From Candidatus Uhrbacteria bacterium (GTDB lineage: Bacteria > Patescibacteriota > Patescibacteriia > UBA9934 > GWF2-40-263), in NCBI GenBank assembly GCA_016188495.1, contig JACPHU010000013.1, forward strand, positions 5,498-69,497: 64,000 nucleotides of DNA. The letters run 5' to 3'. A program made the translations under genes and the position numbers. Positions 10,565-22,885 of the stretch are shown one piece after another; position 1 is the stretch's first letter, and each line of letters begins with the position of its first letter. The notes beneath the pieces are model-generated. The model did not search any database. It had not been told where the DNA came from and saw nothing but the letters and a program-made list of their open reading frames with translations.

Positions 10565-13318
10565 ATGTCAAAGATTTTGAAGGTTCTTTTTGGGGACCCA
10601 AACAAGAAATTGCTTAACCAATTACAGAAAGAAGTTGAAAAAATAAATGCTTTTGAATCAAGCATTCAACCTCTTTCTGATGAAGCCCTAAAAGCAAAAA
10701 CACAGGAATTTAAGGTAAAACTTTCTCAAGGTGTTCTTTTGGACGACCTTCTTCATGAAGCGTTTGCTGTGGTACGCGAGACGGCTCGACGAACACTGGG
10801 GCAGCGCCATTATGATGTTCAGCTCATTGGGGGACTCGTGTTACATCGAGGTCAAATTGCTGAAATGCGTACAGGCGAAGGAAAAACATTAACTTCTACC
10901 TTGGCGTTATATACAAATGCCTTACGCGGACAAGGATGTCATCTTGTGACCGTAAACGACTATTTGGCCAGACGCGATGCGGTTTGGATGGGGCAAGTGT
11001 TTCATTTTCTTGGGCTCTCTGTCGCTTGCATTCAGCAAGATGGAGGGCTCTTGTATGACCCTTCTTTTAAACATAAAGAAGGCGGGGATGTTGAGCAAAA
11101 AGCAGATGAGGAACGTGATGAAACAGGGTCTTTTCATATTCGTGAAGATTATTTGCGTCCCTGCTCTCGTTCTGAGGCTTATGCCGCAGATATTACCTAC
11201 GGAACAAATAATCAATTCGGGTTTGATTATCTTCGTGACAACATGGCTCCTACGTTGGACCAGTGCGTAATGCGCGAACTACACTACGCGATTGTGGATG
11301 AAATCGATTCGATCTTGATTGATGAAGCGCGTACCCCTTTGATTATTTCTGCCGCGGCTGAGAAATCAAACGATCTTTACTATCGCTTTGCCCAAATCGT
11401 CAACGAACTCAACGAGAAAGAGCATTTTAATGTGGATGAAAAAATGCGAACCGCAACGTTGACCGAATCTGGGATCGAAAAAATTGAAAAAATGTTAGGC
11501 ATTGAAAATTTATACGCCATGGATCAAGGTCTCTATCAACGTTTTGCCGATACAGCTTTGCGCGCACGGGCAAACTATCAACGCGATGTCCATTACGTGG
11601 TTAAAAATGGAGAAGTGATTATCGTTGATGAATTTACCGGACGTTTAATGCCAGGTCGTCGATTTTCTGAAGGAATTCATCAAGCCATCGAAGCCAGAGA
11701 AGGCGTAGAGATAAAAAATGAAAGTCGAACCATGGCTACGATTACCTTCCAGAATTTATTTCGCATGTATCACAAATTGGGTGGAATGACAGGTACCGCT
11801 GCCACAGAAGCAGAGGAGTTTTCAAAAATTTATAATCTGGAAGTCGTAGAAATTCCAACCAACAAATCTGTGATCCGTGTGGATGCCCAAGATCGTGTTT
11901 ATAAAACAGAACTTGGTAAATTTTCCGCGCTTGTTAACGATATTCGAGAATATCAACAAAAAGGCCAGCCTGTATTGGTGGGAACAGTGAGTGTGGAAAA
12001 AAACGAACTTCTTTCCCAGTTGTTAACCAAGGCGGGGATTACTCACCAATTGCTCAACGCGAAGAACCATGTTCAAGAAGGGGAGATTATCGCACAGGCT
12101 GGACGCAAGGGGGCCGTTACCATTGCCACGAATATGGCAGGACGGGGAGTAGATATTAAGCTTGGAGGAAATCCTCCGGTCAAAGAAGAGGAAGACGAGG
12201 TAAAACGATTGGGGGGGCTTCATGTGATCGGAACTGAAAGACACGATTCACGCCGTATTGATAATCAGTTGCGGGGACGCTCCGGACGTCAAGGCGATCC
12301 TGGATATACGCAGTTCTATCTTTCTATGGAAGATGGATTGATGCGCATTTTCGGATCAGACCGTGCCAAAGGCATGATGGATCGATTAGGCATACCCGAC
12401 GACATGCCTATTGAAAATAGTTTTATTACTGGTTCTATTGAGAAAGCTCAAACGCGTGTGGAGGGCCATCATTTCGATGCACGTAAGCACCTGTTGGAAT
12501 ATGACGACGTGCTAAACAAACATCGCGAAGTGATTTACGCTCGTCGTCGAGAGATTTTAGAAACGTTTTCCAAAGAACCAGAAAAAATGCGAGACCGTAT
12601 TTTGGACGTGATTGAAGGTGAGATTGAACAGATTGTTCTTTTTCATTCTTCTGAAAATGGAACAGACGGAACGTGGAATCTTAAGGAGATTATTGAAACG
12701 GTTAATGCTATTGTCGCTTTGTCAGAAGAAGAAATGGCTGATTTTAAACAGATGGGTTTGACGATCAAACAAGACAAAGAGCACTTAGCACAGCTTCGTA
12801 CTCAAGTGATTGTAAAAATCATGGAAAGTATCCGAGCTCATTACGATGCTCTTTATGATGTATTTGAGGATCGTAAGAGTGTATATAACATTGAACGTGG
12901 AGTTCTTTTGCGGGCTATCGATATGCTTTGGGTAGATCACTTAGCAGCGATGGGAGCTCTTCGTACAGGCATTGGTTTGCAAGGATACGGACAACGCGAT
13001 CCATTGATTGAATACAAGAAAGAAGGCTTCAACATGTTTCAGCATTTGCTTGGATCGATTAACAACGAAGTCACCAACACCTTCTTTAAGTACGCCAAAC
13101 ATGCGGTGGACATGAAAGTTCAGGTTGATTTGGGCAAGTCCCTTTTTCAAAAAGCGGGTATTACCCTTCAAGGTCCAGCAAAGACCAGTAGTGGTGATAA
13201 GGAAAAATCCGTAACAATAACTACGGAACCTTCTCAATCAGACGAATCAAAAATTGGCCGTAACGATCCCTGTTTTTGTGGATCGGGAAAGAAGTATAAA
13301 AAGTGTCATGGGAAATAG
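10565..13318 (+). CDS. secA: Preprotein translocase ATPase SecA
   Basis: DEAD motor motifs, the HxxxGRxGRQGDPG region and a C-terminal zinc-binding CFCGSGKKYKKCHG. Confidence 0.95.
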   Translation: MSKILKVLFGDPNKKLLNQLQKEVEKINAFESSIQPLSDEALKAKTQEFKVKLSQGVLLDDLLHEAFAVVRETARRTLGQRHYDVQLIGGLVLHRGQIAEMRTGEGKTLTSTLALYTNALRGQGCHLVTVNDYLARRDAVWMGQVFHFLGLSVACIQQDGGLLYDPSFKHKEGGDVEQKADEERDETGSFHIREDYLRPCSRSEAYAADITYGTNNQFGFDYLRDNMAPTLDQCVMRELHYAIVDEIDSILIDEARTPLIISAAAEKSNDLYYRFAQIVNELNEKEHFNVDEKMRTATLTESGIEKIEKMLGIENLYAMDQGLYQRFADTALRARANYQRDVHYVVKNGEVIIVDEFTGRLMPGRRFSEGIHQAIEAREGVEIKNESRTMATITFQNLFRMYHKLGGMTGTAATEAEEFSKIYNLEVVEIPTNKSVIRVDAQDRVYKTELGKFSALVNDIREYQQKGQPVLVGTVSVEKNELLSQLLTKAGITHQLLNAKNHVQEGEIIAQAGRKGAVTIATNMAGRGVDIKLGGNPPVKEEEDEVKRLGGLHVIGTERHDSRRIDNQLRGRSGRQGDPGYTQFYLSMEDGLMRIFGSDRAKGMMDRLGIPDDMPIENSFITGSIEKAQTRVEGHHFDARKHLLEYDDVLNKHREVIYARRREILETFSKEPEKMRDRILDVIEGEIEQIVLFHSSENGTDGTWNLKEIIETVNAIVALSEEEMADFKQMGLTIKQDKEHLAQLRTQVIVKIMESIRAHYDALYDVFEDRKSVYNIERGVLLRAIDMLWVDHLAAMGALRTGIGLQGYGQRDPLIEYKKEGFNMFQHLLGSINNEVTNTFFKYAKHAVDMKVQVDLGKSLFQKAGITLQGPAKTSSGDKEKSVTITTEPSQSDESKIGRNDPCFCGSGKKYKKCHGK

Positions 13319-16122: not shown

Positions 16123-18180
16123 ATGCAAACCTGGAAATTAAAGAAGAAGGTTAAAAAAATAGAGAGAAAAACATGGAAAACAAGACTTGTTGCCGTGTTT
16201 CTTCTGGTCACAACCATTGCCATCGGTTTTTACGATTTTCCTGGAATCTGGAATCAAACAGGACAATATGTTCAGGCGAAAACAGGTTGGTTACCACCTA
16301 CTCTTACGGAAAAGTCATTTCGGTTAGGTCTTGATCTTCAAGGTGGAACGCACCTTGTCTATGAAGCCGATATGTCTGAAATTCCAGAAGAAGACCGTGT
16401 AGACGCTCTGCAGGGAGTTCGCGATGTGATTGAACGTCGAGTGAATGCGTTTGGTGTTTCAGAACCTGTTATTCAGACAACAACATCTGGAGGAACCTAT
16501 CGTCTTATCATAGATCTTGCTGGTGTGATGGACGTTTCACAAGCGATTACTCTTATTGGAGAAACTCCTGTATTGGAATTTAAAGAACCTGGACAGGAAG
16601 CCCAGCGTGATCCAACTCCAGAAGAGTTGAGTCAGCTTGAAACGGCTAATACGCAAGAACGAGCAAAGGCGCAGGAAGTTCTTACTCGAGCATTATCTGG
16701 AGAAGATTTTAATGCTCTTGTTTCAGAATTCAGTATTGATGAAAATAAAGAGGAGACTCAAGGAATCATTAAAGACATTACGGGAGATTCGTATTACAGC
16801 GAATATGCCGCATTAATCCAACAAAGAGGTGTTCAACCAGGACAACTCAACAGTAATTTGATTGAGGGGGATGACGGAATCAGTATTTTTAAATATACCG
16901 CTCCAGCAGAAGTGACAGAAATGTTGCTTTCTCACATCCTGATCTGTTTTGAAGGAAAGAAAGGGTGTGCCAGTCAAACACCGGCCTTGGACGCTTCTAT
17001 TCAAATAGGGAATCTTAAAGATCAAGCAACTCCGGAAAATTTTTCTGAATTGGCAAAAACCTATTCCACAGATCCGTCCGCTCTTTCTAACGGAGGGGAT
17101 CTTGGATGGGGAACCGCTACCGATTACGTTGCTTCTTTCAGTCTTGCAGCCGGAGCTCTTCCTGTGGGAGGAATTTCAGATGCTGTTGAGACAGAATACG
17201 GATATCACTTGATCTACAAAGCAGATCAGCGAACAGTGCCCGCCTACACGATTCAGCGTATTTTAATGCCTTTGACCGATATTTCAGATATCGTTCCTCC
17301 TCCTTCCGTTTGGGTCAATACGCAACTTTCTGGAAAAAATCTTGAACGTGCCGCTGTTGAATTTGATCCAAACTCAGGTCAACCCTATGTCGGTCTTACC
17401 TTTGATACAGAAGGAGGAGAACTTTTTGGAGCATTGACCGAGAGTCATGTAGGACAACCGATCGCGATCTTTTTAGATGGAGCCTCCATCTCAACTCCTC
17501 TTGTGCAGCAGGCTATTTATGGAGGACGTGCGGTGATTACAGGAGATTTTACCGTAGATGAAGCAAAGCTTCTTGCCCAACGTCTTAATGCCGGAGCTCT
17601 TCCTGTTCCTGTTGAGCTTTTATCTCAACAAACCGTTGGACCAACATTAGGGGCTATCTCTCTTGAAAAGAGTATTCATGCCGCTTTATTCGGATTTCTA
17701 TTGGTGGCTCTCTACATGATGATTGTTTATCGTCTACCAGGATTTATTTCTGTTGTGGCCTTAGTCTTGTTTGCCTTTCTAAACTTGTTGGCTTATCGCT
17801 TGTTTGGAGTGACGATTACTCTGGCTGGGATTGCTGGTCTGGTTCTTTCTTTGGGGGTAGCAGTGGATGCGAACGTTTTGATTATCGAACGGTTTAAAGA
17901 GGAATTTGCTTCTGGTCGAGATTTTCATTCATCTATCGATGAAGCATTTAAACGTGCATGGACGGCGATCAGAGATGGAAACATGACGACTCTTATTTCT
18001 TCGGTCATCTTGTATTGGTTTAGTTCCAGCTTTATTCGCGGTTTCGGTCTTACTCTTTCTTTGGGTGTCTTGCTGAGTATGTTTACCGCCATCATCGTAA
18101 CAAGAATTTATTTAACGACTGTTCTTGATTGGAAGGGTATTCGTAAACCATTTCTTTTTGGAATCAAAAAACGATCATAG
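16123..18180 (+). CDS. secD: Protein translocase subunit SecD with an inserted tandem parvulin (PpiC) PPIase-like region
   Basis: The SecD head and TM regions are present (LDLQGG, and a C-terminal 6-TM region with VDANVLIIER). Residues about 165-370 carry two parvulin-like modules. One reads SHILI...GGDLGW...GGISDAVETEYGYHLI. Confidence 0.85.
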   Translation: MQTWKLKKKVKKIERKTWKTRLVAVFLLVTTIAIGFYDFPGIWNQTGQYVQAKTGWLPPTLTEKSFRLGLDLQGGTHLVYEADMSEIPEEDRVDALQGVRDVIERRVNAFGVSEPVIQTTTSGGTYRLIIDLAGVMDVSQAITLIGETPVLEFKEPGQEAQRDPTPEELSQLETANTQERAKAQEVLTRALSGEDFNALVSEFSIDENKEETQGIIKDITGDSYYSEYAALIQQRGVQPGQLNSNLIEGDDGISIFKYTAPAEVTEMLLSHILICFEGKKGCASQTPALDASIQIGNLKDQATPENFSELAKTYSTDPSALSNGGDLGWGTATDYVASFSLAAGALPVGGISDAVETEYGYHLIYKADQRTVPAYTIQRILMPLTDISDIVPPPSVWVNTQLSGKNLERAAVEFDPNSGQPYVGLTFDTEGGELFGALTESHVGQPIAIFLDGASISTPLVQQAIYGGRAVITGDFTVDEAKLLAQRLNAGALPVPVELLSQQTVGPTLGAISLEKSIHAALFGFLLVALYMMIVYRLPGFISVVALVLFAFLNLLAYRLFGVTITLAGIAGLVLSLGVAVDANVLIIERFKEEFASGRDFHSSIDEAFKRAWTAIRDGNMTTLISSVILYWFSSSFIRGFGLTLSLGVLLSMFTAIIVTRIYLTTVLDWKGIRKPFLFGIKKRS

Positions 18181-18181
18181 T

Positions 18182-19072
18182 ATGAAGTTACACATCGTCG
18201 AACATCGAAATCGTTGGTTTCTTTTTTCCGGGGTTCTTATTTTAGGAAGTTTTTTAGCGCTTGGACTTTTTGGCTTGAAATTGGGTATTGATTTTACAGG
18301 AGGAAGTCTTATCGAAGTTCAAGCACAACAAGCGCTTAATTCAGAACAAATACGTTCTGAATTGGCAAATGGGGGATATAACGTCACAGTACAAATAACG
18401 GATAAGAACACTCTTCTTATCAGGACAAAAGATTTGAATAATGAGGAGCATGAAAAACTTCTTACCAGTCTTTCTGCCATTGTGGGTTCTGTAGACGAGC
18501 TGCGTTTTGATTCCATCGGTTCTGTCGTAGGGGGAGAATTGAGAAAAACAGCTGTAACGGGACTCATTTTAATTCTTGTTTTGATTGGATTGTATATTGC
18601 TTGGGCTTTTCGGAAAGTATCCGGACCGATCGCTTCCTGGAAATACGGAGTTTTGACCGTGTTAACAGCTTTTCATGACGTGATTGTTCCGTTGGGTGTT
18701 TTTGCCCTATTGGGTCACTTTATGGATTGGGAAATCGATATTACTTTTGTTGCAGCGATCCTCACCATTTTGGGTTATTCTATTAATGATACCGTTGTGG
18801 TATTTGATCGTACTCGAGAAAACTTAACGAAAAAAGTTGGAAATTCTTTTGAAGAAACTGTGGAATTAAGTATTGAACAAACGTTTGCTCGTTCTCTCAG
18901 TACGAGCATGACAACGCTGTTGGCTCTTTTCGCCATTTTTATTTTCGGAGGAGATACTACTAAACCTTTTGCTTTGGCTCTTATTATAGGAATTGCGGTA
19001 GGGGCCTATTCATCTATTTTCGTTGCGAGTCCTGCGTTGGTAGAGTGGGAATTGCGAAACAAAAAGAAATAA
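18182..19072 (+). CDS. secF: Protein translocase subunit SecF
   Basis: MKLHIVEHRNRWFLFSGVLIL, GIDFTGGSLIEV and the SecF 6-TM core. The start was trimmed to ATG 18182, right after the secD stop. Confidence 0.9.
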   Translation: MKLHIVEHRNRWFLFSGVLILGSFLALGLFGLKLGIDFTGGSLIEVQAQQALNSEQIRSELANGGYNVTVQITDKNTLLIRTKDLNNEEHEKLLTSLSAIVGSVDELRFDSIGSVVGGELRKTAVTGLILILVLIGLYIAWAFRKVSGPIASWKYGVLTVLTAFHDVIVPLGVFALLGHFMDWEIDITFVAAILTILGYSINDTVVVFDRTRENLTKKVGNSFEETVELSIEQTFARSLSTSMTTLLALFAIFIFGGDTTKPFALALIIGIAVGAYSSIFVASPALVEWELRNKKK

Positions 19073-19133: not shown

Positions 19134-20696
19134 ATGCTTTCACTTTTTGCTATTCCTATTGTAAGCCAGGCGACAGGGTTTGCCTCAGGAACTTCTTCTT
19201 ATTTTTTACAACCTCTGGATGCTATTCTTTTTGATATTCTGATTTGGTTTGGTTGGATTCCTATCGTGATGACGTTAGGTTGGGGTTTTACACAGATGTG
19301 GTTAGATTACCGACGAGGACTTTATTCTGCAAAGTTGAAGTATATTCTTTTGGCGGTCGATGTTCCGACAATGACAGAACAAACACCAAAAGCTCTCGAG
19401 AATTTTTTTGCGTCTATTTACGGAACCAAATCTTCTATTACATGGAAGGAAAAGTGGATTGGAGGAAAGTTACATCCGGTTTTTTCTTTCGAAATTATTT
19501 CGACAGAAGGGTATATTCGTTTTCTTATTCGTACACAGGCACGTTTTCGAGATGTGATGGAAGCCGGTATTTATGCTCATTATCCAGACGCAGAAATTTC
19601 TGAAGTGGAAGATTACGCCAAATCATTTCCTAACGAATTTCCAAATGATGAGTATGAAATGTGGGGTGGGGAAATGACGTTTGATAAGCCTTCCATGTAC
19701 CCAATCCGAACCTATATTGATTTTGAGGATCGGATGACGCAAGAAATCAAAGATCCTTTAGGACTCACGTTGGAACAGTTGGCTAAAATGCGGCCAGGAG
19801 AACATTTTTGGATTCAAATTTTGGTTCAGCCTTCCAGTAACGATTGGGCAAAGGCGAGTGTCAAGCATGTTCGTAAAATTTACGGAGATGAAGATGCTCC
19901 TAAAAAGAGTCTTATTGCTTCAACATTTGAATCTGTTATCGCTTGGCCGACCGGTTTATTGAATGAAACGTTAGGAATCGATTTAAGCGGTTTATTGTCA
20001 TCCGGAACTCAGGTAAAGGAAGTAGATCCTTGGAAGACGTTTAAAATTACTCTTCCGCAAAAAGATGAAGCCGAGGCTATTTTGCGCAAAGCAACAAAAG
20101 TCGGTTATGGAGTGAAACTTCGTATTCTGTATGTTGCGCGAAAAAGCGTTTTTCAAAAAGTCGAACGAACAGGAATGGTGAAGGGAATTTTAAATCAGTA
20201 CAGCCATTTGAATTTTAATAAATTCGCTCTGTATATTCCTCAGGTTCCTAAGGATGATTATTTTTGGATGCGTTGGGAATATACCCAAAAACAACACCGC
20301 TTAATGACCGGTTATCAGAAACGAAGCTGGGGAATCGGTGCAAATCCTATCTGGTTGAATGTTGAAGAACTGGCAACTCTTTGGCACTTCCCAACCATTA
20401 CGATGAAAGCTCCGCTTGTGAAGAAGAGTGAGTCTAAACGCGGAGAGCCACCTGTTGGACTTCCTATCACCTTTTTAGAAGACACACTTCCAGGATTTAT
20501 TCCTCCTAAGACAGAGGAACAAAAACAGAATTATTTTCCTGAATTTGAAGAAGAATCGGAGAAAAAATTAGAACCAGAAAGCTCTTCAGAATCGACAGAT
20601 CCGTTTGAAGATCTTGTTCAACCAGTTCTTCCTCGTCAAACGTTTAAAAAATCTTTAGAAGATGATGATGTTGTTCCTCCGAATCTTCCTGTTTAG
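19134..20696 (+). CDS. Membrane-anchored hypothetical protein (520 aa). It has N-terminal TM helices, a large soluble domain and an acidic C-terminus.
   Basis: TM segments occur at about 1-60 aa. The motif NVEELATLWHFP is present. The 3' end is 29 nt upstream of the following VirD4-like ATPase gene. Confidence 0.6.
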   Translation: MLSLFAIPIVSQATGFASGTSSYFLQPLDAILFDILIWFGWIPIVMTLGWGFTQMWLDYRRGLYSAKLKYILLAVDVPTMTEQTPKALENFFASIYGTKSSITWKEKWIGGKLHPVFSFEIISTEGYIRFLIRTQARFRDVMEAGIYAHYPDAEISEVEDYAKSFPNEFPNDEYEMWGGEMTFDKPSMYPIRTYIDFEDRMTQEIKDPLGLTLEQLAKMRPGEHFWIQILVQPSSNDWAKASVKHVRKIYGDEDAPKKSLIASTFESVIAWPTGLLNETLGIDLSGLLSSGTQVKEVDPWKTFKITLPQKDEAEAILRKATKVGYGVKLRILYVARKSVFQKVERTGMVKGILNQYSHLNFNKFALYIPQVPKDDYFWMRWEYTQKQHRLMTGYQKRSWGIGANPIWLNVEELATLWHFPTITMKAPLVKKSESKRGEPPVGLPITFLEDTLPGFIPPKTEEQKQNYFPEFEEESEKKLEPESSSESTDPFEDLVQPVLPRQTFKKSLEDDDVVPPNLPV

Positions 20697-20725: not shown

Positions 20726-22885
20726 ATGTCTTACAATCACGACCATGAAAACGAAGTAAATTACTTCGCCAAGACCAATTTCCGAAATCAAATGACAAAA
20801 TTCGGAATTAAGACGGATGATCGTCGCCGACATGTCTATGTGATCGGAAAGACAGGTATGGGAAAAACGACCCTCCTGGAGAATTTTATTTTATCTGATA
20901 TTTACGCTGGGCACGGATGCTGTTATGTAGATCCTCATGGAGACACTGCTGAAAAATTGATCAATTACATTCCAAGTTGGAGACTCAATGACGTGGTGTA
21001 TTTCAATCCCGCGGACATGGATTATCCTGTTGGATTTAATATTCTTGAAGCGGTAAGCGAACGTCATAAACATCTTGTCGCCTCAGGAATGATGGGGGTC
21101 TTTCAAAAAATATGGGAAAACATGTGGTCTTCACGCATGGAGTATATTTTAAATAACACCATTCTTGCTCTCTTGGATAATCCTGGACAGACACTGCTTG
21201 GAATTAACCGAATGCTTTCTGACGCTGATTTTCGAAAACGTATTATCGGAAACGTCAAAGATCCTGTGGTTCGTCAGTTTTGGTTAAAGGAGTTTGCTTC
21301 TTATAACGATAAGTATGCCCAGGAAGCCGTAGCTCCTATTCAAAATAAGATCGGACAATTCCTTTCAGCGACCGTTATTAGAAATATCGTTGCCCAAGTC
21401 AAGTCTTCTATTAATGTTCGGGAAATCATGGATAGCGAGAAAATTTTTATTATCAATCTTTCGAAAGGACGTATCGGTGAAGATAATTCTCGGTTATTGG
21501 GAGGACTTCTTATTACGAAAATTCAGTTATCAGCGATGGAACGTGTTGATACGCCAGAAAAAGAACGAAAAGATTTTTACTTATACGTCGACGAATTTCA
21601 AAATTTTGCCGTTGAATCTTTCGCGAGTATTTTATCTGAGGCTCGTAAGTACCGTTTGTGTCTAACCATGGCGCATCAATATATTGCCCAATTAACAGAA
21701 GAGGTGCGCGATGCGGTGTTTGGAAACGTTGGTACTATCATTACGTTTCGTGTTGGTTCCCCCGACGCTGTTTTTATGGAGGCAGAGTTCATGCCACGGT
21801 TTACTCCAGAAGACATTATTAATCTTCCAAAGTTTAACGTTTATCTCAAACTGCTTATTGAAGGGGTTACGAGTCAGCCTTTTTCTGCCATGACGCTTTC
21901 GCCTATTGCTCAAGTGACCCATTCCGAAGAAAAAGTCATCAAGATTTCTCGTGAGCGTTATGCCAAACCTAGAGCTGAAATCGAAGAGAAGATTCTGCAA
22001 TGGAGCGGTATGGAGAATACGGATATGGAGACGCTTTTGAAAGAGGCTGAACAGAAGAAAAAAGACCAGAAAGAAAGTAAGAAACCACGATTTGAATATA
22101 AGTGTTCTCGTTGCGGTAAAGATGTTGTATTACCTGTTGAACTCGATCGATCTCGACCTATTTATTGTGATGACTGTATTGCTATTGTTCGGGATGAGCG
22201 CAAAACTGGTAAAAAACCTTTTGTTAAACCACCTTTTCCTCCTAAGCCTTCGGAAGGACAATCGGTTGAAAAGCTTCCTGAGGAGCCTTCTATCACGTTA
22301 AGCACGCTGCGAAAGCCTTCTATTTCGGCTCCGGTTTCGGTTCCTAAATCCGTCGTCGTGCCTTCAAGAACACCTGCACCTGCAACACCTGCACCTGCAA
22401 CACCTGCACCTGCAACACCTGCACCTGCAACACCTGCACCTGCAACACCTGCACCTGCAACACCTGCACCTGCAACACCTGCACCTGCAACACCTGCACC
22501 TGCACAACGTTCTTCAGTGGCAAGTCATTCATACACGTGTTCTGATTGTACACGCACGTTTAGCGCCGGAGTGAAACTTGATCCTAGTCGTTCGTTGTAC
22601 TGCCAAGAGTGTTTAGAAAAAATTCGCGCGAAGCGTAAAGAACATCCTGTTGAAAAAAAACAAGAAGCCAATCACCCAAGGCTTGTTACCAGTTCGGTGG
22701 TCCAAAGTAGCTTATCGCAACAGACCGATGACGTTACAAAAAAGAAACGTAAACGTAAAAGAAAAAATAAACAGACAGAGACTGTGCCTTCTGTTCATAC
22801 AGAGTCGATGTCTCCTAAAAAACCTGAACCTCCTCAAGAAAAATTGGGAACGCTAAAAACAGGACAAACCGTTCATTTTGATTAA
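20726..22885 (+). CDS. TraD/VirD4/FtsK-HerA-superfamily P-loop ATPase (type IV secretion coupling-protein-like). It has a C-terminal double zinc ribbon and a (TPAPA)9 linker.
   Basis: Walker A is VIGKTGMGKTT. DPHGD follows. Walker B is LYVDEFQNF. LTMAHQ is also present. The C-terminus has CSRCGK...RPIYCDDC and CSDCTR...RSLYCQEC, both YacG-like CxxC...YCxxC ribbons, separated by nine TPAPA repeats. Confidence 0.7.
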   Translation: MSYNHDHENEVNYFAKTNFRNQMTKFGIKTDDRRRHVYVIGKTGMGKTTLLENFILSDIYAGHGCCYVDPHGDTAEKLINYIPSWRLNDVVYFNPADMDYPVGFNILEAVSERHKHLVASGMMGVFQKIWENMWSSRMEYILNNTILALLDNPGQTLLGINRMLSDADFRKRIIGNVKDPVVRQFWLKEFASYNDKYAQEAVAPIQNKIGQFLSATVIRNIVAQVKSSINVREIMDSEKIFIINLSKGRIGEDNSRLLGGLLITKIQLSAMERVDTPEKERKDFYLYVDEFQNFAVESFASILSEARKYRLCLTMAHQYIAQLTEEVRDAVFGNVGTIITFRVGSPDAVFMEAEFMPRFTPEDIINLPKFNVYLKLLIEGVTSQPFSAMTLSPIAQVTHSEEKVIKISRERYAKPRAEIEEKILQWSGMENTDMETLLKEAEQKKKDQKESKKPRFEYKCSRCGKDVVLPVELDRSRPIYCDDCIAIVRDERKTGKKPFVKPPFPPKPSEGQSVEKLPEEPSITLSTLRKPSISAPVSVPKSVVVPSRTPAPATPAPATPAPATPAPATPAPATPAPATPAPATPAPATPAPAQRSSVASHSYTCSDCTRTFSAGVKLDPSRSLYCQECLEKIRAKRKEHPVEKKQEANHPRLVTSSVVQSSLSQQTDDVTKKKRKRKRKNKQTETVPSVHTESMSPKKPEPPQEKLGTLKTGQTVHFD
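22370..22504 (+). repeat. Perfect 9 x 15-nt tandem repeat (ACACCTGCACCTGCA) encoding (TPAPA)9
   Basis: It is read in frame inside the ATPase gene. It also creates the spurious antisense ORF at 22344-22553. Confidence 0.9.

Follow-up and report, generated by a model that had tools for sequence, protein, structure and literature searches.

A parvulin-type insertion at the base-head junction of the P1 domain of SecD in Candidatus Uhrbacteria reads as two permuted modules in tandem

It is still debated how secreted proteins, on leaving the Sec channel, are passed to folding factors across the membrane, and the compartment in which this takes place has no ATP. The P1 head of SecDF touches preproteins as they emerge, and it swings from a membrane-facing to an upright form and back (PMC5974789). 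E. coli SurA binds to the holotranslocon, and in AlphaFold models its two parvulin domains, P1 and P2, lie on the P1 head of SecDF (PMC9987972), while PpiD/YfgM is located at SecYEG (PMC9643414). In Mycoplasma pneumoniae, PrsA-like peptidyl-prolyl isomerase (PPIase) lipoproteins (Mdp444/436/489) cross-link to SecDF and build a dome that covers SecDF-SecYEG. SecDF has recently been argued to be a docking site for SurA, PpiD and PrsA-like proteins. Here we describe a secD gene of Candidatus Uhrbacteria bacterium whose product contains parvulin-type modules within its own polypeptide chain. The gene lies on the forward strand of a 64,000-nucleotide stretch of contig JACPHU010000013.1 (assembly GCA_016188495.1, positions 5,498 to 69,497), which we call the window and whose numbering is used throughout. 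With a probability of roughly 0.65, we read the protein as a functional SecD with a parvulin unit of two lobes where the base of its P1 domain meets the head, a unit that would act as a translocon-tethered foldase or holdase.

The secD coding sequence (16123-18180, + strand) encodes 685 amino acids (aa) and ends in the stop codon TAG at 18178-18180. A Pfam scan of the protein detects two rotamase-type matches in the region following the first half of P1: Rotamase_2 (PF13145) at aa 168-261, with 29.2 bits against a cutoff of 27, and Rotamase (PF00639) at aa 271-366, with an E-value of 6e-24 and 85.3 bits against a cutoff of 21.7. Canonical SecD and SecDF proteins, such as those of Thermus thermophilus (3AQP/5YHF), Deinococcus radiodurans (5XAN/5XAP) and E. 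coli (SecD, 5MG3), share with the window SecD the first transmembrane helix (TM1), a P1 domain made of base and head, TM2-6, an adjacent SecF and the AVDxNV motif. In contrast to these proteins, the window SecD has about 240 extra residues, amounting to two parvulin lobes, between the sequence VLEFKE and the head.

The extent of the extra block was defined by a phmmer search against PDB sequences, in which SecD aa 56-172 align with residues 23-133 of Thermus SecDF (3AQP) and aa 400-677 with residues 158-435. From this alignment, the inserted block spans aa ~157-396. It begins directly after the conserved strand PVLEFKE, which closes the N-terminal half of the P1 base, and it stops ahead of the W-x-N-T-x-L-S-G entry to the P1 head. 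At the same site Thermus SecDF carries about 25-40 residues, and the canonical SecD of a Saccharibacteria locus, taken from the Candidate Phyla Radiation (CPR), has only a helical linker of about 40 residues. These comparisons place the insertion at the P1 base-to-head junction, where it replaces a short helical linker, and not within the head core. A preliminary description of this DNA had proposed a parvulin/PpiC insertion in the periplasmic head of SecD. The insertion and its periplasmic location in P1 are borne out, both by the Pfam matches and by the gap that the region leaves in the Thermus SecDF alignment instead of aligning as plain P1, but the site is the base-head junction. The interval first assigned to the insertion, 16610-17235 (aa ~163-371), covers both modules, but the block runs 36 nt further, to include a strand encoded at 17236-17271.

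The second module (module 2; aa 263-371; 16909-17235, + strand) is a parvulin in canonical order, and its PF00639 match covers profile positions 1-95 of 97. The PrsA/SurA-like signature that had been remarked upon earlier is present, with SHILI at aa 270, GGDLGW at aa 324 and GYHLI at aa 360, and the module aligns with SurA P1, SurA P2 and PrsA. In a residue mapping for which the SurA alignments were taken from PDB sequences and the Pin1 and Par10 sequences were entered by hand, H271 (16933-35) aligns with the β1 histidine of SurA P1 (lsHili) and with Pin1 H59, D317 (17071-73) with the aspartate of SurA P2 (sqDpgs) at a position where Par10 and Pin1 have cysteine (C113 in Pin1), and H362 (17206-08) with the β4 histidine (SurA P2 fgwHli; Pin1 H157). 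Y359 sits at the position of Pin1 S154, where PrsA has a tyrosine, and the hydrophobic proline pocket is kept in the form of L327 and F339. The catalytic parvulin residues, whose integrity the preliminary description had proposed to check, are intact in this module (H271, D317 and H362, with F339 in the pocket) and not in the first. Across 60 Uhrbacteria-type homologues, H271, H362, L327 and F339 are each at least 90% conserved. By its profile match, its predicted fold and its catalytic residues, module 2 is a parvulin that looks catalytically intact.

A further feature of module 2 is a nearly invariant C-x6-C pair, C275 (16945-47) and C282 (16966-68), that flanks its β1-α1 loop. The corresponding loop of Pin1 is a substrate- or phosphate-binding loop. 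The two cysteines may form an extracytoplasmic disulfide. C...GC loops resembling this one were observed in four divergent relatives (P0130, L010, P0228 and P0239).

The first module (module 1) differs from the second in both order and residues. Its body (aa 157-262; 16591-16908, + strand) has the parvulin fold without β1 (α1-α2-α3-β2-α4-β3-β4); we conclude that β1 is missing from the body because the Rotamase profile matches only from position 12. When the module is scanned alone, PF00639 scores 32.7 bits (cutoff 21.7, E 1.6e-7) over profile positions 12-96 only. An hhalign comparison of the two modules gives an E-value of 1.9e-5, and the order of elements in module 1 matches that of module 2, at predicted local distance difference test scores (pLDDT) of 88-95. 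Following module 2 is a trailing strand, ADQRTVPAYTIQRILMP (the AYTIQRILMP region, aa 372-383; 17236-17271, + strand), which is predicted to be the β1 of module 1. Both catalytic histidine positions are substituted, by S254 in β4 and by R379 (17257-59) in this β1 strand, and the arginine is nearly invariant among homologues. Module 1 is, judging from its profile match and residues, parvulin-derived and catalytically degenerate, as it departs from the canonical order and lacks the catalytic histidines. Two parvulin modules can therefore be detected, as had been proposed, but they are not simple tandem copies, since the first is without β1 and has lost both histidines.

The fold of the insert and the arrangement of its strands were derived from AlphaFold2 (AF2) models. 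A model of the full protein, built from a 60-sequence alignment, has a mean pLDDT of 83.5, with the insert as its most confident part (pLDDT 88-96). A model of the insert only (aa 147-400, 22 sequences) has a pLDDT of 90.5 and a predicted template modelling score (pTM) of 0.72. When the insert was compared with the PDB using Foldseek, full-length SurA came first, with 221-249 aligned columns across both parvulins. Single parvulin domains matched with TMt values of 0.74-0.84 and root-mean-square deviations of 2-3 Å, including SurA P2 (4g2p, 0.84), S. aureus PrsA (2jzv, 0.83), SurA P1 (2pv1, 0.81) and the catalytic domain of Pin1 (0.78-0.80). The PPIase domains of B. anthracis and B. subtilis PrsA and Par14 were also among the matches.

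In both AF2 models, DSSP assigns unbroken strands of 22-23 residues at aa 253-274 and aa 360-382. According to these assignments, β4 of module 1 continues into β1 of module 2, and β4 of module 2 continues into the trailing strand (aa 372-383). Residues 372-382 reach a pLDDT of 96-98 in the insert-only model. We also considered VLEFK (aa 150-154) as the β1 of module 1 and rejected it: it is disordered in the insert-only model, with a pLDDT of about 45, and it is further disfavoured by natural deletions of module 2 that retain the trailing strand. Because aa 372-382 are confidently placed while VLEFK is disordered, we assign the trailing strand as the one that completes module 1. An arrangement of two hairpin-closed permuted units without exchange is not favoured either, since the DSSP strands are unbroken at both junctions. 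The models thus predict that the β1 strands are swapped between two permuted units.

Relatives that carry a single module show how such an order could be read. Queried with the P1 region, a set of 1.84 billion representatives yielded 346 proteins at E <= 1e-30. Among the best 150 of the 346, 135 have both flanking SecD parts, and their inserts fall into size classes of under 50 aa (canonical; 60 proteins), about 125-175 aa (one module; about 17 proteins), about 225-275 aa (two modules; about 41 proteins) and 325-400 aa (longer; 9 proteins). The one-module inserts follow the pattern α1 ... G(E/D)DF..LA...S.DPGSK..GGDLG ... G[YW]HII-KK.EERGEGD..EV.[AS]HIL, in which the histidine-bearing β1 follows β4 via an acidic hairpin. 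Because this β1 comes after β4, we interpret the one-module insert as a circularly permuted parvulin. The position of the β1 histidine motif was counted in 421 proteins, which belong to three families of closely related members and hence lack phylogenetic independence. It lies downstream of β4 in 129 of the 143 one-module proteins and upstream in none, and it lies upstream of β4 in 259 of the 278 two-module proteins and downstream in 5. The β4 histidine motif is kept in 132 of the former and 273 of the latter. When two one-module inserts were artificially un-permuted, the profile match extended to Rotamase position 1 or Rotamase_3 position 14-15, with a gain of 2-5 bits.

The order of the window insert, [α1..β4]A-[β1]A-[α1..β4]B-[β1]B, reads as two permuted units in tandem. 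A different history, in which a canonical parvulin became nested into the β4-β1 hairpin of a permuted one, would produce the same final topology. The SecD insertion appears to be the first case of natural circular permutation in a parvulin; a full-text search of the literature, with most subscription journals outside its coverage, found no paper on a circularly permuted parvulin.

In four relatives a precise deletion has removed module 2 and spared both module 1 and the trailing strand: P0053 and P0065, which are Uhrbacteria-like, and P0410 and P0414, which are Peregrinibacteria-like. The losses in these two clades are independent. All four proteins come from short Logan contigs, and they may be real variants or may exist beside a full-length copy. 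Being cleanly absent from close relatives, module 2 appears to be a discrete unit.

Of the known parvulins, SurA (E. coli, 1M5Y) is the best structural match over both lobes and the best sequence match among solved structures. SurA has tandem parvulins of which P1 is inactive and P2 is active, and both SurA and the window insert pair a degenerate parvulin with an intact one. However, the window SecD is without the N/C chaperone core of SurA. No Pfam family of the SurA_N type or the trigger-factor type matches the protein at E <= 1, and the helical NC chaperone domain is absent. Whereas SurA has two independent domains, the lobes of the window SecD are predicted to be strand-exchanged permuted units that form a covalent part of SecD. 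The host, unlike that of SurA, is probably monoderm and would have no role for outer-membrane protein delivery. PrsA of Firmicutes and PpiD/YfgM of E. coli likewise present a membrane-tethered parvulin on the trans side, beside the translocon, and module 2 shares PrsA-type residues (TEYGYH and the D of the S-x-D-P loop). PrsA and PpiD are tethered by a lipid anchor or a transmembrane helix, whereas the parvulins described here are tethered by insertion into SecD. The NCBIfam models for PrsA and SurA match only the parvulin stretch and stay far under their cutoffs (47 versus 360 and 40.7 versus 394 bits, respectively). Because the helical chaperone domain that defines these families is absent, we do not regard the window SecD as a member of the PrsA, SurA or PpiD family.

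The M. pneumoniae dome offers a parallel of another kind. There too, PrsA-like PPIase domains lie straight over SecDF in a genome-reduced, wall-less or monoderm host, and of the several parvulin domains just one has preserved its catalytic residues. The first catalytic histidine of Mdp444 is replaced by arginine, as at R379 of the window SecD. The dome differs in that it consists of separate, non-covalently associated lipoproteins with SurA-like helical domains that enclose a large chamber, whereas the window SecD is a single polypeptide with no chamber.

Taken as a translocon-tethered foldase or holdase, the insert would work as follows. The β1 of copy A, with H271, would join the body of copy B, with D317 and H362, to form one canonical-order site of the SurA P2/PrsA type, which is module 2. 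The β1 of copy B, with R379, would complete the degenerate lobe, module 1, with S254. We infer that the unit rides on the mobile P1 arm by the SecYEG exit, where an unfolded secretory chain captured by SecDF could undergo prolyl cis/trans isomerization catalyzed by module 2. Both lobes would present peptide-binding surfaces like that of SurA P1, which could hold the chain and prevent its aggregation or back-sliding, with module 1 acting as a non-catalytic binding and scaffolding lobe. A foldase/holdase that is recruited in trans elsewhere, in the form of PrsA, PpiD/YfgM, SurA or the Mycoplasma dome proteins, would here be hard-wired into the translocon motor. One could go further and suppose that, with a double permuted, strand-exchanged parvulin on a swinging P1 arm, capture, isomerization and release are mechanically gated by head movement driven by the proton-motive force, making the protein an energy-coupled extracytoplasmic foldase in a compartment that lacks ATP; we offer this coupling only tentatively, as a possibility with the odds against it.

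Several observations weigh against this reading. The full AF2 model has a pTM of 0.44, which leaves the placement of the insert on SecD uncertain, and the proposed strand exchange was read from DSSP strings and model confidence. D317 is less strictly kept than the other active-site residues, and the loop reads STGPS or SDGPS in some homologues. The loss of module 2 in some close relatives indicates that catalysis is dispensable at least there. The parvulin domains of PpiD and SurA P1 are non-catalytic, and the chaperone function of SurA and PrsA does not need PPIase activity. By analogy, the essential contribution of the insert may be that of a holdase or structural element. Finally, the genome may encode a free-standing PrsA besides (PMC9166423); no other parvulin gene was found within the 64-kb window.

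Some of these same observations would be expected if the insert were a holdase or clamp only, with both lobes non-catalytic and enlarging the cavity in which the P1 head captures substrate, and with the histidines of module 2 kept for fold stability. Module 1, which is clearly non-catalytic, is never lost, in contrast to module 2, which some relatives lack; the single module of Kerfeldbacteria is degenerate, and SurA P1 (2pv1, TMt 0.81) is among the structural matches of the insert. Variation at D317 and the established dispensability of PPIase activity in SurA and PrsA also fit such a clamp. However, it does not readily account for the conservation of H271 and H362 in the Uhrbacteria-type homologues, for the retention of the β1 and β4 histidine motifs across very divergent clades at 33-40% identity or for the full hydrophobic proline pocket, and we consider it rather unlikely that binding is all that the insert does.

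The site itself bears on another alternative. In loci from Bacteroidetes (L029) and Actinomycetes (L033), the SecD P1 base-head junction carries at least 100-150 extra residues with no rotamase match, and NCBIfam SecDF models with a long P1 (NF009585 and NF009540) align the head far downstream. Lineage-specific insertions seem to have a general hotspot at this junction. Given that it tolerates unrelated insertions of about 100-150 residues, and that Peribacteria SecD has a longer insert with about 100 additional residues, the parvulin unit could be a spacer or docking module that lengthens the SecD arm or binds the cell wall, the S-layer, pilus or type IV secretion system subunits or signal peptidase, and that has no general role in folding. 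The long-P1 models agree with this as well. Yet the parvulin active-site residues are kept across classes and no consistently adjacent partner gene was found in the window, so that a spacer or docking role seems improbable to us.

Returning to the insert as a parvulin unit of SecD, we found that it is widespread but patchy in Patescibacteria. PF00639 lies inside SecD in 118 of the 120 best homologues, which are 58-98% identical to the window protein and are named Candidatus Uhrbacteria or Patescibacteria. Independent contigs from NCBI, JGI, ENA and Logan show this architecture in their hundreds, and some of them exceed 1 Mb in length. The secD open reading frame (ORF) of the window is unbroken, with SecD sequence on either side of the insert, and E-values reach 1e-24. 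These data refute the idea that the architecture is an artefact, be it of chimeric assembly, of a frameshift that joined secD to a prsA-like gene or of a motif matched by chance. The spread across hundreds of clusters, together with the residue conservation, points to purifying selection on the insert.

Two-module inserts were found in Uhrbacteria and also in SecD-SecF fusions of about 1050-1100 aa in proteins named Peregrinibacteria or Gracilibacteria. P0205 comes from Peribacterales. One permuted module that, from its residues, looks catalytically intact is present in Parcubacteria GW2011_GWF2_45_11 and Patescibacteria RA.bin89, and the one-module proteins related to P0147 carry the names Moranbacteria, Moraniibacteriota or Parcubacteria. 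The degenerate module of Kerfeldbacteria UBA9570 has GYYVG and no histidine strand. In a scan of 38 GTDB loci, which used one protein as the query and patterns specific to its close relatives, no rotamase was found in the loci of Saccharibacteria, Roizmanbacteria, Woesebacteria, Nealsonbacteria, Bacteroidetes, Actinomycetes and Bacillus, some of which have other insertions at the site. The insertion was found nowhere outside Patescibacteria, with shallow sampling beyond the CPR. Five loci (L002, L006, L007, L010 and L011) of species-representative metagenome-assembled genomes titled "uncultured Gammaproteobacteria bacterium" have an Uhrbacteria-type SecD with 48-75% identity to the window protein; these titles are probably taxonomic mislabels.

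The domain combination is already visible in precomputed Pfam annotations, annotators name the proteins SecD, and a full-text search of the literature, again with most subscription journals outside its coverage, found no paper on a SecD-parvulin fusion. PrsA annotations have been reported in all CPR classes (PMC9166423), and some of these calls may be parvulins inside SecD. In NCBI, one single-module SecD (P0337) goes under the name "foldase protein PrsA precursor". The insertion can serve as a clade marker within Patescibacteria, and it calls for caution with automated statements that PrsA is present in CPR surveys. A covalent fusion maintained throughout a lineage is independent evolutionary evidence for a partnership of parvulins with SecDF, and it points to the base-head junction as the place where this partnership operates. 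On the tentative reading of an energy-coupled foldase, the fusion would also be a Rosetta stone, indicating that the SecDF P1 head is where SurA, PpiD and PrsA work across bacteria. The window SecD also offers a compact, single-polypeptide system for asking whether SecDF couples its power stroke to the catalysis of folding.

The remainder of the protein is that of a SecD. The SecD equivalog model TIGR01129 matches at 360.8 bits (cutoff 244.4) and TIGR00916 at 215.5 bits (cutoff 148.6). TM1 (aa 17-38; 16171-16236, + strand) is a helix in the AF2 model. In the standard SecD topology, TM1 is followed by a large extracytoplasmic part, and because TM1 lies at aa 17-38 we take the protein to be extracytoplasmic up to aa ~505. 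The N-terminal half of the P1 base (aa 61-156; 16303-16590, + strand) contains the GG motif (Sec_GG, PF07549, aa 66-85) and SecD_1st (PF21760, aa 98-155), ends in the strand PVLEFKE and aligns with T. thermophilus SecDF residues 23-118. The segment that forms the P1 head and then leads back into the P1 base (aa 397-500; 17311-17622, + strand) matches SecDF_P1_head (PF22599, aa 400-495, E 1.4e-29) and aligns to T. thermophilus SecDF from residue 158. TM2-TM6 (aa 501-670; 17623-18132, + strand) match SecD_SecF_C (PF02355, aa 497-660) and correspond to AF2 helices at aa 507-668. D582 (17866-68) of the AVDANVL motif is invariant in the 60 homologues and aligns to avDgnvl of T. thermophilus SecDF; we take it to be the equivalent of the functionally tested proton-pathway aspartate of the AVDxNV motif. 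In a Foldseek search with the whole SecD model, the SecDF structures 5XAN, 5YHF and 3AQP rank top. Thus, by its profile matches, its architecture, the adjacent SecF and the conserved transmembrane motif, the window protein is a SecD.

The partner gene secF (18182-19072, + strand; PF02355 at E 3.1e-54, and Sec_GG) has its ATG one base past the secD stop codon, and secA (10565-13318, + strand) lies 2.8 kb upstream of secD. Downstream of secF, on the same strand, are a 520-aa ORF without a Pfam match (19134-20696) and then a gene for a VirD4/TrwB-like type IV coupling protein (T4CP; 20726-22885) with TrwB_AAD_bind, T4SS-DNA_transf and zinc-ribbon matches. The T4CP gene contains a low-complexity (PAPAT)x8 repeat at 22373-22492. 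No virB4 was identified near it among the ORFs scanned, and orphan T4CPs are reportedly common in Patescibacteria (PMC12102498). A tRNA scan of the 64-kb window gave no tRNA gene, and an Rfam search gave no family at the gathering threshold. The cumulative GC skew climbs almost monotonically across the window (1-64000).

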